Below, piece by piece: positions 4,102 to 11,378 of a DNA stretch of 64,000 nt. Position numbers and translations under genes: made by a program. Below the pieces are notes generated by a model, which was given only the letters and a program-made list of their open reading frames with translations, had not been told where the DNA came from and ran no database searches. Each line of letters begins with the position of its first letter. Positions within the stretch are counted from its first letter, which is position 1. Source of the DNA: an uncultured virus (IMG/VR IMGVR_UViG_3300021960_000038) (Duplodnaviria; Heunggongvirae; Uroviricota; Caudoviricetes); IMG/VR virus record IMGVR_UViG_3300021960_000038; one strand, 5' to 3'.

Positions 4102-4335
4102 CTAGAAAGTTCCACCGTCGAGAACTGTAGTTGTTACCCACTTATCTGTGGCAGCATCATAAGACAGAAGTCCGTCATCGGTTTCTGTCGCATTCACGTC
4201 TGCTAGGTCATTTAAATCTGCAGTAGAAACTGCAGAAGAAGATGAACCTATTGCCACTTGCTTAACTTTTGTTCCACCAGAAGATGTAACTCTTGCTTTA
4301 AAGGTGGACCCTGTATTTATTGTTCTTATTGCCAT
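4102..4335 (-). CDS. Small fibre-associated protein
   Basis: LNDLADV...LLSYDAATDKW fibre repeat; ends LDGGTF; TAATG-coupled to upstream gene. Confidence 0.7.
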   Translation of the reverse strand: MAIRTINTGSTFKARVTSSGGTKVKQVAIGSSSSAVSTADLNDLADVNATETDDGLLSYDAATDKWVTTTVLDGGTF

Positions 4336-4667
4336 TATCTTGTTACTCCTGGAGTGACGATTACTTGTCCTTCTAAAACACGAGTTTTGTCACCACCCGA
4401 TGAAATAATCACACAATCGTAGACATATCTTCCGAAGTCTAATGCTGAGGTTTGTGTGTCAGTAAGTTGTAATGTAATTTGACCAGCAACTCCTGAAACA
4501 GAAGTTGAAAACACTGCTGATGTTGAAGTGCTGGTGTATGCTTTTCTTATATGGGCAGTTGCTGTATATCCAGAAAGATCCATAGCAGTTCCATCACTGT
4601 TTGTCATGTCTACAGTGAATGAAAAGTCTGATCCTTGATCAATGTATAGATTACTTACTGATGCCAT
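4335..4667 (-). CDS. Virion structural protein, BppU-like Ig adaptor
   Basis: NLYIDQGSDF...DLSGYTATAHIRK...GRYVYD...RVLEG.V.VTPGVT pattern; follows a late promoter. Confidence 0.7.
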   Translation of the reverse strand: MASVSNLYIDQGSDFSFTVDMTNSDGTAMDLSGYTATAHIRKAYTSTSTSAVFSTSVSGVAGQITLQLTDTQTSALDFGRYVYDCVIISSGGDKTRVLEGQVIVTPGVTR

Positions 4668-4693: not shown

Positions 4694-5491
4694 TTAGAGA
4701 TTGTATTGCTGTGCTCCAAACAATAATATAGTGGGTATTTTCGCAGTAATTCGACACTCTTTTGTAATATTGAATTCTTGAACGGAGTCATATTCAGTAT
4801 TATTTATTTCAATTTTTCCTTCCAGCAACAATAAAACTGATTTTACACCCTCTGGTTGTATGCGTACGAACTCACCCTCTTGTAAGTCATGTACATCATA
4901 CTTCCAAAAGTCGTATGGAGTGGGTAATGTTTGTGGATTGTAGTTGTTAGAGATACAATTTACAGTAGCACCATCTGTAAGTGCTGTGGAAACTGTGTTA
5001 AATTTTTGATCAGGATCCTCAAATTTAGAATTGTTGACATTGATCTTAGGAATTCTATCGTACTTTCCAATGTTGTGTGTACCTCTACGATCTATATGTC
5101 CAGGATTTTCCTTATCTCTCTCATAGGGTCCAGGATTTCCGTTCTCATCGATGGACACAATCTTAATTTCACCTTGTGTATAGATATGAATCCTTTTGTT
5201 GTGATGAAGTTCTCCATTGTCAAGTATCTTAAGAGATTTCCAAAAGACTGGATCATGATCTTCTAGAGTTTTAAAAATTTCTTCTTTGGTAATGCTGTCT
5301 TTATCCATGTACTCAGCATATGTTTGCATTAGGTTATCCCAAATTTCACTAGGATCTACAGGATAAGTTGCCTCCAATGCATAATCTGTGGGTGCTGAGA
5401 ATCGAGTTTGATATCCTGCATCCATAATAGTGCGTTCGACTACGAATGTTCCGCATTTGTATGTTTCTGATCTTCTTTCTGGTTGTTTCAT
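4694..5491 (-). CDS. Hypothetical protein, C-terminal cupin-like beta region (paralog 3)
   Basis: C-terminal YDVHDLQEGEFVRI...VLLLLEGKIEIN pattern shared with 5488-6066 and 6063-6716; ATGA overlap. Confidence 0.6.
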   Translation of the reverse strand: MKQPERRSETYKCGTFVVERTIMDAGYQTRFSAPTDYALEATYPVDPSEIWDNLMQTYAEYMDKDSITKEEIFKTLEDHDPVFWKSLKILDNGELHHNKRIHIYTQGEIKIVSIDENGNPGPYERDKENPGHIDRRGTHNIGKYDRIPKINVNNSKFEDPDQKFNTVSTALTDGATVNCISNNYNPQTLPTPYDFWKYDVHDLQEGEFVRIQPEGVKSVLLLLEGKIEINNTEYDSVQEFNITKECRITAKIPTILLFGAQQYNL

Positions 5492-6066
5492 ACTATCTCT
5501 GTAATCGTTGCTACCATAACTTCATCCTTTGCTCTTATGGTAACATCTTTACCTGAAGTTGCTTTGAGGTATTCAAATCCTTTAACATGTTTGTCATTAA
5601 TTTGAGCACGACCTTTTGCTATAAAGATATGTATATTTCCACCTAAGTTGCCGATGGTTATGTATTCATCTTTTTGTAGAGTGACATAATCGTACACAAG
5701 TTCTTTTTCTTGCATCTTATGTTTAGGATGAATGCAGTAGAGGTGTCCTCCGTCTATAAAGTGCATCCGAACTTCAGATGCATCAGTGTGGTTAGGATAC
5801 CATGGTCTTCCTGGCATAGGATTTGGTTTGAGACCTGTATTAGCATAATGTATGTTACACCAACCACGAGGAGCAACACCAAAACTATGAGAGTCTTTTC
5901 CAAAAAGGACATCATGTTTCTCAGTAAAAATATGTATTGCGGAACTTGGTCTTTCACCTTCTCTACCCTCCTCAAATCTGTGAGTGTTCACTTGGAAGTA
6001 TTCATCTTCCTTTGCATGATTGTCAAAGACTAAGACATCTTCGTAATTGAACCAATTCCATTTCAT
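5488..6066 (-). CDS. Hypothetical protein, cupin-like (paralog 2)
   Basis: GWCNIHY...YDYVTLQKDEYITI...HIFIAKGRAQIN; ATGA overlap. Confidence 0.6.
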   Translation of the reverse strand: MKWNWFNYEDVLVFDNHAKEDEYFQVNTHRFEEGREGERPSSAIHIFTEKHDVLFGKDSHSFGVAPRGWCNIHYANTGLKPNPMPGRPWYPNHTDASEVRMHFIDGGHLYCIHPKHKMQEKELVYDYVTLQKDEYITIGNLGGNIHIFIAKGRAQINDKHVKGFEYLKATSGKDVTIRAKDEVMVATITEIV

Positions 6067-6716
6067 AGTTCTGTAATGATGACAGCCATGTTATCTGATG
6101 ATCTACCTTGTAAATCATAATCACTCTTACCTGATATTGTTACAAAGTTTATAGAATCTAACACATCCGTATCTTTTTTCTTACCACGATTACAAACTTT
6201 AAACTTACCATGTAAAAGAAACACCCATACTCGTTTACCATGATGTTTCATGCGTACATACTCACCCTTTTCAAGTTTTACAAAATCCCAGACGCACTCT
6301 ACATCTTTCATAGTCTTTGGATTTGCTAATACGCATAATGACATAGCATCATCTTGGAACTGCCATTTAATTTTAGTTCCTGTATACCCTGTCCAACTTG
6401 GTGTGCCTTTAAATGGATTAGGATCGTTTTGCCTAAAGAAGTTTATATTGTTCCATCCGTGACCATGTACTCTTCTTGTTACACCTGATCCGTCGGCAGC
6501 AGGTGCATCCATTTCATTAATAATAGTTCCACCAATCACGCATCTAAAGTTGCTGTGTCTTTGTTCTTTGTCTCTCCCCTTTTCAGGTAAGTGAGTGTTG
6601 GGTGTGTAGACGTCTCCTTTGTTTCCTTCTATAGAAAACATCCAGAAATCTTTGGCATCCCAGAACCTATTCTTTATTCCCATACTTCTCCAAATCTTGT
6701 AATGCTTCTTTAGCAC
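6063..6716 (-). CDS. Hypothetical protein, cupin-like (paralog 1); start may be internal MGIK
   Basis: GWNNINF...WDFVKLEKGEYVRM...WVFLLHGKFKV. Confidence 0.6.
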   Translation of the reverse strand: MLKKHYKIWRSMGIKNRFWDAKDFWMFSIEGNKGDVYTPNTHLPEKGRDKEQRHSNFRCVIGGTIINEMDAPAADGSGVTRRVHGHGWNNINFFRQNDPNPFKGTPSWTGYTGTKIKWQFQDDAMSLCVLANPKTMKDVECVWDFVKLEKGEYVRMKHHGKRVWVFLLHGKFKVCNRGKKKDTDVLDSINFVTISGKSDYDLQGRSSDNMAVIITEL

Positions 6717-7245
6717 TTTGTACTTCTTGATAATTTGCTGAATGTTGTATAGTCACTTCAGACATCTCAATCCATGGTGGTAAATCTATAAGATACTCTA
6801 TAAACTGAACAACCCAATCATGATCCAATGAATCTAATTCATGTTCTAACAATCCTAAGTTAAGTGTACACATTCTACACTGCTTGTCAGAATTGAAAGT
6901 TAGATTGTTTGCTAAATGGTTAAGTGATGCTTTCTGCGCAGCATACATATAACCTTTACTTATATTAGCATACTTCGCACGTGATGAAAAGTTTATGATG
7001 AGTTTGTTAGGATCATGCTTCCAATGTTCAAATATACCCATCAGCAATTCAGTTTGTTTGAAGCGAAGATGTGCTAGATTAATAAAGACATCGCAATCTT
7101 TAATCTTATCTACTACTGCGTCGGCATACTCTATTGAAAAATCTGCACTTGAAAATTGTACAATCTCATAATGAGAATAGTTTCTTAAGAAGTCTGCGAT
7201 CTTACCACCGAGACCACTCTTACCTGTTATTGCTACTTTTATCAT
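6667..7245 (-). CDS. Short-chain dehydrogenase/reductase (SDR)
   Basis: VAITGKSGLG Rossmann loop, DVFINLA, INFSS, YAAQK catalytic YxxxK. Confidence 0.85.
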   Translation of the reverse strand: MIKVAITGKSGLGGKIADFLRNYSHYEIVQFSSADFSIEYADAVVDKIKDCDVFINLAHLRFKQTELLMGIFEHWKHDPNKLIINFSSRAKYANISKGYMYAAQKASLNHLANNLTFNSDKQCRMCTLNLGLLEHELDSLDHDWVVQFIEYLIDLPPWIEMSEVTIQHSANYQEVQSAKEALQDLEKYGNKE

Positions 7246-8149
7246 AATAATCCTTAATCAAATCAAACGATGGTTTACCAAACAATGAACCATCTACACT
7301 ACACTTGTTACAAGGTGAGCATGATCTATCACCTTTGATTAACCTTTTTCTTATTTTGTTCATAGGTTTACTGAACCAAACTTCATGTAAAGATTGCTGT
7401 AGTAGATTACCCACTACATGTTCTCTACCCCAATCATTAGAGCAGAACAATACATCACCATTCCAGTCTACAAACATTTTATAGAAAGGATAATGACATG
7501 GTTTACCTTCTAGAGATTTAACATCGGATTCTTCAATACCAACCCAATCTATTACACCACTTCTATTGTTGAGTATCAACCCATGCTTTTCAAACTCACC
7601 CCAATGCATACGATATTTATATTTTGTTACAGGTATTTCTGCCCAGAGTATTAATTCATCAAAATGTTTCATCTGTTCTGGACCATCATATAGATTGATG
7701 TAAATCATGTCTAATCCACTATTATGAATAAGATCTACAAGATAACGATGATCTAACTTATCACCATTGGTGTTACACTCTAATGTAGCATAAGGAAGTT
7801 CTGTTCTGAAGATTTTTACGATATCTCTAAAATCTGGATTGAGTAAGTTCTCACCAAATCCACTAAATGAAACTTTACCATTGAAAGATTCTTCTGCCAA
7901 TTCTTCTGCTATTCTTTGAGCACCTTTGATGGTCAAATGTAGATTTCGATTAGGGAATACTTCTGGATCATGTCTTGGACAAAACACGCATGTGCGATTA
8001 CACAACTCTGTTGTGTTTATCTCAACTGTAAGTATTGAAGATAGTGGTTTGTCTAGTTGGTTATGGTTTCTTTCGAAGTGCTTTCGCTCTTGTTCTCTGC
8101 GATGTTCTAGGAAACCATATTGATCAACTGCTGGTATCCTTTCTGTCAT
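7220..8149 (-). CDS. Radical SAM protein with SPASM/Twitch domain
   Basis: CNRTCVFC (CxxxCxxC), SGFGENLL, NTNG; C-terminal PCHYPF...FCSND...GNL...CSPCNKC; start taken at MTERIP. Confidence 0.92.
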   Translation of the reverse strand: MTERIPAVDQYGFLEHRREQERKHFERNHNQLDKPLSSILTVEINTTELCNRTCVFCPRHDPEVFPNRNLHLTIKGAQRIAEELAEESFNGKVSFSGFGENLLNPDFRDIVKIFRTELPYATLECNTNGDKLDHRYLVDLIHNSGLDMIYINLYDGPEQMKHFDELILWAEIPVTKYKYRMHWGEFEKHGLILNNRSGVIDWVGIEESDVKSLEGKPCHYPFYKMFVDWNGDVLFCSNDWGREHVVGNLLQQSLHEVWFSKPMNKIRKRLIKGDRSCSPCNKCSVDGSLFGKPSFDLIKDYYDKSSNNR

Positions 8150-8309
8150 TATAAAATCCTCTTTCAATTATCGCAGTTTGTACTCTAGGAGCAATAGGTT
8201 CAAAGAGTGCCATGGCACCCCTTAACTCATTTACATCATCAGTTTTGGCATCTGCCTTTAGCACATCGATGTAGGTTTGTGTATTAGTTAGTGATGTCGA
8301 TTTTTCCAT
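8124..8309 (-). CDS. Hypothetical protein, 61 aa
   Basis: TAATG-coupled to the 472-aa gene; overlaps the rSAM start. Confidence 0.55.
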   Translation of the reverse strand: MEKSTSLTNTQTYIDVLKADAKTDDVNELRGAMALFEPIAPRVQTAIIERGFYNDRKDTSS

Positions 8310-9727
8310 TATAAATTAAATTGTGGGGTTGGTACAGATTGGTGTATCTTACTAATTTGATTAGCAGGTGCAGTAGGATCGTTTACATACACCTCTTGTG
8401 CTTTTCTAATTGTACCACCTTGATTTATATATACACCTTTTGCTTTGGCAATTGGTCCGATAGGTCTAGTCGCTGGGTATGGCTGTTGTGCAGGATTTTG
8501 ATAAGTCTGCTGATATGTGTATGGTTGCTGATAAGGTTGCTGTATCGGTCTAGTAGCACCGAATGGTTGTTGATATCCATAAGGTTGCTGGAAAGCATAA
8601 TTCTGCTGATATCCATAAGGTTGTTGGAAAGGATATGGTGTAGTGCCTGTTGCTGGACGTGTTCCAGTTGCAGGTCTTAATGCAGGTGTTTGTCCAGTTG
8701 CTGGTCTCGGACCAGTCGCAGGTCTTACTGCTGGATAAGGTTGCTGAAATGAATAAGGTTGTTGAAATCCATAAGGTTGCTGGAATGAATATGGAGATTG
8801 AAAAGTTGTATTAATCGTTGCTGCCTGTACATTTATTGAATTATTTGCTTCATAAACAACTGGAATTGGTTCTTCTTCCCCAAAGTCGAATTCTTCTTCT
8901 TCTAATGTCCAATTTACTTGGAAACCAAATGGACCTGCTGACCCAAAACTAAATGGATATGGTGTATCTGCTGGACTAGATGCTTGATGCAATAGAACAT
9001 TTGCAACAGTAGGTGTTTGAGCAGTCAATTCAAACTCTCCTGGCTGATTAGGAGCAGGATAAAAACCTACAAAGTTGTATGCAAATGTATCACCTTTGTT
9101 TATTTGTGCTGAAACAGGCGAATTAGATTGACCAAATGGTGATGATATTAAAATATCAGAATAACTCGGTTGTGCTGTTAATGTAACAGGATATGTTGAC
9201 ACCAATGATGGATGCGTTCTTTGATAAGTTTGCTGATATGGTTGCTGATACTGATAAGGTATTTGTGTAGCACCTTTGGGTTGCTGATATGGAACAGTTC
9301 CAATGGCAGGTCTTACAGCAGTACGAGTAGCAGGTTGCTGTGCTGGAGTTGGTTGTTGTCCTGTAGCAGGTCTAACCCCTGTAGTGGGTCTTGTTCCACT
9401 GGCAGGTCTGGTTGCTGTATAAGGTTGTTGAAATCCATAAGGTTGCTGAAACGGATATGGAGTTTGATAGGGTTGTTGAAATCCATATGGTTGCTGGAAT
9501 GGATAAGGTGTTGTCCCAACAGCAGGTCTTGGTCCACTTGCAGGTCTTTGTGCTTGAACAGGCACAGTTCCAGTAGCAGGTCTTGTAGCAGTATAAGGTT
9601 GTTGTGCTGGTCTTAGAGCAGGTCTAGTTCCAGATGCAGGTCTAGTCGCAGGTTGTTGTATAGGTCTGAATGCAGTGTATGGCTGCTGGAAGTTACTCCC
9701 GATATTTATGTAGATATCATCAGACAT
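8309..9727 (-). CDS. QQPY/RPA repeat protein with self-complementary arms; putative fibre-tip protein
   Basis: Arms aa13-127 and aa309-423 are built from QQPY and RPA(T/S)G units around a non-repetitive domain; C-terminal GVYINQGGTIRKAQEVYVN; AAGGA RBS. Confidence 0.85.
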   Translation of the reverse strand: MSDDIYINIGSNFQQPYTAFRPIQQPATRPASGTRPALRPAQQPYTATRPATGTVPVQAQRPASGPRPAVGTTPYPFQQPYGFQQPYQTPYPFQQPYGFQQPYTATRPASGTRPTTGVRPATGQQPTPAQQPATRTAVRPAIGTVPYQQPKGATQIPYQYQQPYQQTYQRTHPSLVSTYPVTLTAQPSYSDILISSPFGQSNSPVSAQINKGDTFAYNFVGFYPAPNQPGEFELTAQTPTVANVLLHQASSPADTPYPFSFGSAGPFGFQVNWTLEEEEFDFGEEEPIPVVYEANNSINVQAATINTTFQSPYSFQQPYGFQQPYSFQQPYPAVRPATGPRPATGQTPALRPATGTRPATGTTPYPFQQPYGYQQNYAFQQPYGYQQPFGATRPIQQPYQQPYTYQQTYQNPAQQPYPATRPIGPIAKAKGVYINQGGTIRKAQEVYVNDPTAPANQISKIHQSVPTPQFNL

Positions 9728-9737
9728 GATCTATCCT

Positions 9738-11378
9738 TTAGACCACGAACCAAAGATGTCCTGTGGAAGTTCCTGTTGAGTCTGTTGGTGCACTACTTGT
9801 AATTTCATAATCTAAAGATATACTTAAATCGTATGGGTCAGATGAAGATCCTGGAGTTGTATCTGTTAAGTTAACATCAATACCAGCACCCTCAACATAT
9901 TTTAAATACTTACCACCATCCATAGTAACTTGAGTTCCGTCACCATCGATAGCATACCATTCGTAAGTATTATTTAGTGTTAAAGTTCCAGCAGAATCAT
10001 CATAAGTCTTTGATATGTTAGTTCCTGCTGTAATTAAGTTAGCAACTCTGTCATCTACTCTTTCATCAGTATAGAACTTGTTAGTACCTTCTGAAAAATC
10101 ATCAGTGTCTAGTGTTCTAGTTCCACCGAGTGAAACAGATGTACCATTAATAGTAATAGCAGAATTTGCTAATGCTGAGTTTGGTAAGTTTGTTACACTT
10201 AGATCAATCGCACCATCACCTGCATCATCATAGGTAGCAGTGATGTTAGTATGCGAACCATTGGTCACTAATTGGGCACCAACGATATCTTGTATGCTTT
10301 CTGTATCTGTAGTTGCTGAGTTTGTGATTGTCAATGAACCAGCACCATCATCGTAAGATAAACTGATGCCTGTTCCTGCTGTAAGTAAAGTGTCAACTCT
10401 ATCATCTACTCTTTCGTCTGTGTAGAATTTGTTAGTGCCTTCTGCTAGATCGTCAGTATCTAAAACTACAGCACCTGTAGAACCATTCACACTTGTAACA
10501 GGAGCACTTGCTGCTGTAAAACTAATTACACCTGATGAAGAATCGTATGAGATATCACCAGATGCTGAAATTGCATTTCTTGCTAATGTGTTACTAAAAT
10601 ATTGATTGGTAGATCCTTCTGCTAAATCATCTGTGTCAAGATTAGATAAACTAGATACTGTTCCTGTTACATCACCTGTGATATCACCAACGAAAGCAGT
10701 TGAAGTGATACTTGAGAACCCTGTACCAACTCCATTCGTAATGGTTGCTGTTCCATCTGTAATGCTAGGTGATTCAAAAGTATGACCAGTGTCAATCTTC
10801 ATGTTACCATCAACAAAAGTATTACCTTCTAATTGAACTGTGTAACCTGATTCTAAAGTAGTGGTTGGTGAGGATCCATCACCATTAATAATTACACCAG
10901 ATGCATTATTGTTATAGATAGCACCAAGAGCAGTAAGTTCCCAATCATCTGCTGCACCTTCTGTACCTTGCACATCTAAATATGATCCTGTAAAAGTTGA
11001 TAAACGAATAATATCATTTAAACTAGCAGCAGAGGTAAGAGTAATGGTTGTGAACAATCCACCACTGGGTCCACCCACAGCATAGTCAACACCACTTCGA
11101 AGTAAAGCACCATTTTGGAATACTTGAACTCGGTTCTGTCTAAAACTTAATGTATTACTAAAGTTGTCTGTACCAGAGAATGTAGTTTGTCCAGAACTTG
11201 CTGTGAATTCAAATTCTTGGTAGTAGAAGTACAAATCTTGTATGCTGTTTACAGCATCTACAATAGTAGTTTGGTTGATAGTTCTTAAACCAGAAACATC
11301 ACCTACATCGGTTGCAAGTTCGTTATATCTACTTCTCCAAGTTTCAAAAGTATCTGTGGTATTAACTGTCTTTGCCAT
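9738..11378 (-). CDS. Tail-fibre-like protein
   Basis: TDTFETWR N-terminal anchor motif; FTASSGQTTF/VFQNG domain; DTDDLAEG.N.FYTDERVDDRV repeats; ends SSAPT...GHLWFVV. Confidence 0.8.
   Translation of the reverse strand: MAKTVNTTDTFETWRSRYNELATDVGDVSGLRTINQTTIVDAVNSIQDLYFYYQEFEFTASSGQTTFSGTDNFSNTLSFRQNRVQVFQNGALLRSGVDYAVGGPSGGLFTTITLTSAASLNDIIRLSTFTGSYLDVQGTEGAADDWELTALGAIYNNNASGVIINGDGSSPTTTLESGYTVQLEGNTFVDGNMKIDTGHTFESPSITDGTATITNGVGTGFSSITSTAFVGDITGDVTGTVSSLSNLDTDDLAEGSTNQYFSNTLARNAISASGDISYDSSSGVISFTAASAPVTSVNGSTGAVVLDTDDLAEGTNKFYTDERVDDRVDTLLTAGTGISLSYDDGAGSLTITNSATTDTESIQDIVGAQLVTNGSHTNITATYDDAGDGAIDLSVTNLPNSALANSAITINGTSVSLGGTRTLDTDDFSEGTNKFYTDERVDDRVANLITAGTNISKTYDDSAGTLTLNNTYEWYAIDGDGTQVTMDGGKYLKYVEGAGIDVNLTDTTPGSSSDPYDLSISLDYEITSSAPTDSTGTSTGHLWFVV
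10051..10445. repeat. Intragenic direct repeat encoding EGTNKFYTDERVDDRV, two copies (about 10051-10093 and 10403-10445)
   Basis: Near-identical ~43-nt segments of the form tcatctactctttcntcngtntagaanttgttagtnccttctg. Confidence 0.75.

Follow-up and report, generated by a model that had tools for sequence, protein, structure and literature searches.

A predicted fold-back beta-ribbon tail fibre with a self-pairing side hairpin in an uncultured T4-like phage

Two-stranded beta-ribbons that are long and free are usually thought to be unstable, and neither predicting nor designing strand register is easy. In the stalk of streptococcal antigen I/II, an alpha-helix is paired with a polyproline II helix. 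As summarised in PMC9659904, the needle of the T4 long tail fibre protein gp37 is six-stranded and formed from three chains (Bartual et al. 2010), and its size is given as 150 x 25 Å, about 15 nm long (PMC3004832). In beta-barrels, an aromatic residue packs over a hydrogen-bonded glycine in the “aromatic rescue” or mortise-tenon motif, which helps define strand register (10.1101/2020.10.22.346965), and residue-pair preferences of this kind have already been catalogued (PMC12291216).

Here we describe P0001, a protein encoded in a 64,000-nucleotide stretch of DNA (IMG/VR IMGVR_UViG_3300021960_000038; hereafter the window) from an uncultured virus. A first-pass annotation had read aa131-170 as a side hairpin obeying the pairing code of the main stem, which would give the protein a branched topology. 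We confirm the underlying observation; the interpretation as a fork is partly supported by comparison with homologous sequences, and is extended by it. We found no published description of self-pairing, mirror-coded phage fibres in a search that covered openly available text and a small part of the subscription literature.

The ribbon gene, its neighbourhood and its relatives

P0001 is a 472-aa ORF (window 9727-8309, minus strand, as are all P0001 features below) in the tail module of an uncultured T4-like phage, and the ORF together with its homologs predicts a fold-back beta-ribbon fibre. A Pfam scan of P0001 returned no match, and its sole PHROG match is a weak one at the C-terminus, to phrog_13729 (unknown; E 4e-4). 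The protein is rich in Pro, Gln, Thr, Ala and Tyr, with 74 Pro and 68 Gln in 472 residues, and contains only three His; the gp37 core, for comparison, holds His-bound iron. Neighbouring genes match the T4-like families gp6, gp7-like, gp8, gp5 OB domain, DUF4815 and LtfC-like, and with baseplate and fibre genes nearby P0001 occupies the position of a T4-like tail/baseplate module gene. Runs containing the gene come from estuary and marine metagenomes (20/23 rows, 17 studies).

Directly upstream lies a gene for a 546-aa fibre-like structural protein (9738-11378, minus strand; phrog_697 match), a candidate carrier of the ribbon. Among relatives this protein ranges from ~390 to 920 aa, with its N-terminus and a GHLWFV-type motif at the C-terminus conserved. 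Wherever an upstream gene with the shared C-terminal motif was found, it directly adjoins the ribbon gene, and its product may be where the base domain of the ribbon docks. This C-terminal base domain (aa424-472, 8312-8458) is conserved in alignments A1 and A4 and is likely to be the site of virion attachment; a second conserved base segment, at the N-terminus (aa1-13, 9689-9727), consists of invariant columns in A1. On the downstream side, P0001 is separated from the LtfC-like gene (4335-4667) by five genes (4694-8167, minus strand) encoding a radical SAM/SPASM protein, a weakly FabG-like reductase and three ORFs without family matches. Because an LtfC-like gene directly follows the ribbon gene in most relatives' loci, this block looks like an inserted cassette.

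A protein search with P0001 yielded 25 homologs, and 179 representatives of the family came from a profile search (E≤0.001). Viral contigs, when scanned, gave 131 relatives, the best 80 of which were taken as loci. Among the 81 loci listed, 34 encode a single chain, 39 carry the ribbon gene split into two adjacent genes (L081:3593-6477; L003, L018, L021, L035, L037, L043, L069 and others) and 8 are incomplete. No match was obtained by tblastn across 50,697 phage records, nor a usable one in the Atlas; profile A4 searched against the PDB gave a best E of 0.11, to an unrelated entry, and no virion proteomics or solved structure for the family turned up in the libraries searched.

Main-stem register and pairing rules

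In an anti-diagonal scan of P0001, registers 436 and 435 stood far above all others, the doubled Gln of the arms making R:Q pairs show at both. All 48 main-arm prolines (48/48) lie at even-numbered positions, and we take 436 rather than 435 as the physical register because only an even register puts them all in one pair class. The main stem so defined by register scores, nested folding and the lineage code described below joins an outgoing arm (aa13-126, 9350-9691) to a returning arm (aa310-423, 8459-8800).

A family code, consisting of two 20x20 pair tables, was trained on the outer 110 residues per arm of 45 non-redundant homologs, with P0001 excluded and four sequences skipped for want of an anchor; a separate lineage code was learned from the main stems of P0001 and its relative L083. 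Under the family code register 436 scored +110 bits and all 12 neighbouring registers were negative. Alignment of the 45 homologs under this code required 11 gaps in total and separated two pair classes, partly self-reinforced in training: class 0 holds 1180 prolines in 2427 pairs (P:Q 730, P:R 321, N:T 236, I:Q 119), and class 1 holds none in 2422 pairs (A:Y 329, A:F 227, R:Y 186, G:Y 156, V:Y 120). The even spacing of prolines is independent of the training alignment, and in the arms of split forms 1046/1057 proline spacings are even and 297/1057 are multiples of three. Restriction of Pro to one pair class, opposite Gln or Arg, is the strongest rule of the family, one that the first-pass annotation did not list, with small:aromatic pairs on the other face. 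The R:Q rule put forward in the first-pass annotation is strict in the P0001 lineage, where 16/16 main-stem Arg lie opposite Gln, and does not extend to the family at large, in which R:Q is not enriched (-0.4 bit); it is a lineage-specific feature.

General beta-sheet geometry would assign class 0 to non-hydrogen-bonded and class 1 to hydrogen-bonded pairs. We read class 1 as probably hydrogen-bonded because the Gly:aromatic motif occurs at hydrogen-bonded sites (10.1101/2020.10.22.346965). Six single-chain relatives (L067, L071, L076, L078, L050 and L053) lose proline parity in the middle of an arm and give poor folds under the family code, and may have a different local structure or many bulges. 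Compared with P0002, P0006 is missing 36 residues from the C-arm alone, a loss that would disrupt the main register; the sequence comes from a single contig, and the gap may be a repeat collapse in assembly.

The split forms allow the code to be read between two proteins. In 28 distinct gene pairs, gene A encodes the N-arm and a variable C-terminal domain, and gene B, a few bases downstream, encodes the returning arm and the base domain. In every one of the 28 pairs the predicted fold lays the A-arm along almost all of the B-arm, some folds containing single-residue bulges and the longest ungapped match, in L081, reaching 313 pairs; A and B arm lengths, estimated from composition, correlate across 17 pairs (r=0.93). 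When scored on pairs 111-165, which the training did not cover, the cognate A:B combination was the best in 7/8 cases (1.94 vs -0.41 bits per pair), the better partner in the single exception being a close relative. A predicted complex of the A- and B-arms of L022 scored 0.13, against a mark of 0.32.

The Pro/Gln-rich arms might instead be polyproline II or disordered, with the mirror pattern due to some other packing or to a DNA inverted repeat. Their content of Pro and Gln would suit such a state, as would the low confidence of structure prediction, AlphaFold2 on the single P0001 sequence giving a mean pLDDT of 37.4 and no strands in the main arms. However, the prolines have a period of two rather than the three of polyproline II, and fall in one parity with alternating pair classes as in a beta-ribbon; inverted repeats within the 120 nt coding for the side segment reach at most 6 bases; and the complementarity holds across two separate genes. 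We consider this explanation very improbable.

The side hairpin and forked tips

The side segment, aa131-170, corresponds to nucleotides 9337-9218; a DNA-level inverted repeat or hairpin over this interval was considered and rejected. The eight pairs first listed for it all lie on i+j=301, and one of them, V145:I156, obeys neither the R:Q nor the small:aromatic rule that the list was said to follow; the register also contains P132:Q169, P140:Q161 and P146:Q155, absent from that list. Under the family code without P0001, register 301 led 21 registers with 15.9 bits, the runner-up scoring 3.1. Codes from other homologs and from main stems both choose 301. A 20-residue side hairpin had been proposed; the supported stem has 15-16 pairs and not 20. 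Register scores, nested folding and the lineage code place strand 1, of Arg/small-residue type, at aa132-146 (9290-9334) and the return strand, of Gln/Tyr type, at aa155-169 (9221-9265), on either side of an 8-residue loop (aa147-154, 9266-9289) with the conserved turn P150-K151-G152. Prolines are at even positions before the turn (132, 140, 146, 150) and at odd positions after it (157, 163), a parity flip that the odd register requires.

An unsupervised nested fold of the whole of P0001, made with the code of other proteins, gave 13-126:310-423, 132-146:155-169 and 179-184:297-302 at all three penalties. The last of these, in register 481, is weak (12.2 bits) and is predicted to close a variable, beta-rich tip domain (aa176-307, 8807-9202), which would form the second branch. 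This domain has no Pfam, Atlas or PDB fold match and has diverged in the close relatives L082 and L083. It includes a strongly acidic loop (aa275-287, 8867-8905) that is acidic in both relatives too, and the branch loops of many homologs are likewise acidic and aromatic.

Among shuffled versions of aa129-172, the observed best-hairpin score under the family code was reached by 2/3000 when all residues were shuffled, by 3/3000 when shuffling stayed within arms and by 123/3000 when the alternating faces were also kept, so that the hairpin is only modestly above face-preserving shuffles; under the lineage code, 0/1000 shuffles reached it in either of two schemes, in both P0001 and L083. In the main arms of P0001, 27/72 windows of 44 aa score equally well as local hairpins, since each arm is an alternation of Arg-type and Gln/Tyr-type blocks, and local score alone therefore cannot single out aa129-172. 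These self-pairing arm windows are what would be expected if the segment were a leftover of repeat duplication, an Arg-type block followed by a Gln/Tyr block, which fit each other only as any such blocks would and which may be flexible or alternatively paired. Strand 155-169 also fits 112-126 (17.6) and 332-346 (17.0) nearly as well as 132-146 (19.0), and AlphaFold2 lent the hairpin no support: aa120-312 with a 3-row alignment had a mean pLDDT of 34.8 and no strands in aa120-172, and Foldseek with this low-confidence model found no match at E≤0.001. Yet those alternative partners are occupied by the main stem, and the global fold reaches 117 bits vs 36 + 31 (67) for local-only folds of both arms. 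Strand 132-146, for its part, has its best partner anywhere in P0001 in 155-169 (19.0 vs 11.2 for the next). Plain duplication, moreover, predicts no parity flip at the turn, and segment length is constant in L082 and L083 while the flanks change. The side segment stands out by being what remains after the main stem has formed, by its parity flip and by its conservation, and we judge the duplication account improbable.

A metagenome scan for close relatives gave three loci with two distinct proteins, so that the exact side segment is present in only 3 distinct sequences; sequence searches returned no further side-hairpin or tip relatives beyond L082-L085. L082 is identical to P0001 at 111/113 N-arm positions and 37/40 side-segment positions, with a diverged tip. 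In L083 the main stem is 8 pairs shorter, Arg-type and Gln/Tyr-type blocks are swapped between the arms in step, and the side segment has 11 substitutions in 40 residues at the same length, without an indel. Two of its pairs change on both sides (A137:Y164 to S:F, V145:I156 to A:A) and A141:Y160 becomes A:F, with all three R:Q and all three P:Q pairs kept; a covariation statistic would need more than these three sequences. Pro167, new in L082 and L083, falls in the proline class, and the PKG turn is kept in all three sequences. For L083 the lineage code was again best at 301 (0/1000 shuffles), and under the family code its hairpin scored 11.3 bits and was not chosen in the full fold.

The first-pass annotation had proposed checking whether homologs gain or lose the segment as one unit. 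L082 and L083 keep the 40 aa free of indels while stalk or tip change, and in the split forms the whole hairpin is missing, none of the 28 pairs having one of ≥14 bits in its arms, which is compatible with gain or loss as a unit and no proof of it; it also makes the hairpin dispensable at family level. Partial deletions, which would have spoken against a unit, did not appear: no indel is listed inside 9218-9337 in contigs of 4 runs, contigs being a form of data that drops rare variants. The 750-890 nt contig “skips” most plausibly reflect repeat blocks of relatives that match the other arm, and not deletions.

Tips were folded in 31 hand-picked single-chain sequences (30 of 52 distinct ones plus P0026), one of which had no main stem. 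In 25/30 the tip scored above the best of 20 shuffles, the exceptions being P0001 itself (11.9 vs best 16.4), L053, L056, P0008 and P0015; of the 25, 24 have at least two side-by-side branches and 22 exactly two, as in P0017 (148-167:176-195 and 205-228:240-263), counts to be read with lenient shuffles that destroy the alternation, near relatives in the set and a folding script that may merge adjacent stems. A forked tip thus looks like a family trait of single-chain homologs (24/30 above shuffles with ≥2 branches), as far as predicted folds can tell. Branch and loop lengths vary across the tips; among 53 sequences, short motifs at the junction are shared by 8 and by 10. Branch modules may have been shuffled among family members, a suspicion raised by the second branch of P0011, L034 and L052, which is similar in sequence to the P0001 side hairpin; the second branch of P0001 is a short stem carrying a ~130-aa domain. 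None of 7 tip domains, nor the base domain, matched a Pfam family at the curated cut-off. In homologs of 745 aa (L026:4348-6585, L040:4087-6321, also P0008 and P0015) the arms are rich in Arg, His and Asn, the globular tip is ~300 aa long and no side hairpin is clearly present.

The three-way junction proposed at the outset thus draws support, at the sequence level, from the nested fold, the close relatives and the family's forks. The pairing could be real and the branch not free, with the hairpin packed into a compact head alongside the stalk end or the tip domain, or paired between chains by domain swapping. Sequence complementarity is blind to intra- versus interchain pairing, the linkers at the junction measure just 5, 9 and 7 aa, and branch lengths in homologs are often similar, making side-by-side packing possible; phage fibres, moreover, are often oligomers, as the three-chain gp37 needle illustrates (PMC9659904). 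Against such packing, the parity flip falls exactly at the conserved PKG turn, as a chain reversal predicts, and prolines of the outward class would be expected to block many edge-to-edge bonds. We regard a packed or interchain arrangement as unlikely.

Proposed architecture and comparison with known systems

Our preferred reading, which we think probable, is that P0001 is a two-stranded beta-ribbon tail fibre whose register is set by residue complementarity and whose stalk ends in a three-way junction with the side hairpin and a head. The sequences themselves establish complementarity between the strands, the registers, their conservation and the genomic setting; the ribbon geometry, the assignment of pair classes, a physical fork and host binding are our reading of these, and the low-confidence AlphaFold2 models speak neither for nor against it. 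The ribbon would be antiparallel, with about 113 pairs and a length of ~38 nm at 0.33-0.34 nm per pair, and residue-level complementarity would fix the register of its strands. The proline class, mostly opposite Gln or Arg, would occupy non-hydrogen-bonded pairs, where Pro would cost no intra-ribbon bond and would prevent sideways aggregation; the proline-free class would supply the hydrogen-bonded pairs, with an aromatic over Ala or Gly and, in the P0001 lineage, Arg opposite Gln. At the distal end the chain would make no immediate turn: aa132-169 would fold on themselves by the same rules into a ~5 nm hairpin, a second short stem would bear the globular domain, and the chain would then return along the stalk, completing the junction. 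The conserved termini would anchor the ribbon, probably on the fibre protein encoded upstream. P0001 is probably a host-binding fibre, judging from a conserved stalk with an exchangeable head (L082). The side hairpin would be its copy of “branch 1” of the forked tip common in single-chain homologs, and likely serves to brace or orient the head or to supply a second contact finger; conserved like the stalk and not like the head, it favours a structural role.

For the family as a whole, the chances are about even that the ribbon is a protein analogue of RNA secondary structure, in which a two-class code builds stems, hairpins, bulges and three-way junctions, two separate chains pair specifically, and preferentially with their cognates, across at least 300 pairs (~100 nm), and the side hairpin is a single modular branch within a programmable beta-ribbon. 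Should the fold prove real, the family supplies thousands of natural pairs that spell out pairing rules able to build branches, offers natural orthogonal A:B chain pairs, makes the determination of beta-register directly testable with short peptides and suggests a beta counterpart of coiled-coil pairing for design. It would also give common uncultured marine T4-like phages a host-binding appendage missed by AlphaFold2 and family libraries.

The gp37 needle is the nearest solved design, and P0001 differs from it in strand number, length and branching. Like gp37, P0001 would be a T4-like phage fibre whose chain goes out and returns in long antiparallel strands, its variable host-binding part placed distally; in P0001 this resemblance is at the sequence level only (registers 436 and 301, divergent tip), and neither sequence nor profile similarity to gp37 or a solved fibre was found. 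Unlike gp37, the P0001 family has a Pro-rich stem of 113 to over 310 pairs, branched or encoded by two genes, without a PDB sequence match, and its confinement of prolines to one pair class argues against the continuous edge-to-edge bonding of a six-stranded barrel. As in antigen I/II, distant segments of one chain would pair to form a long stalk bearing a variable head at its end; unlike antigen I/II, the period-2 proline rule points to two beta-strands. The G:Y, A:Y and A:F pairs resemble the mortise-tenon motif of beta-barrels; whereas a barrel has one or two such motifs, the P0001 family iterates hundreds of pairs as a code and adds to them a Pro:Gln/Arg class.
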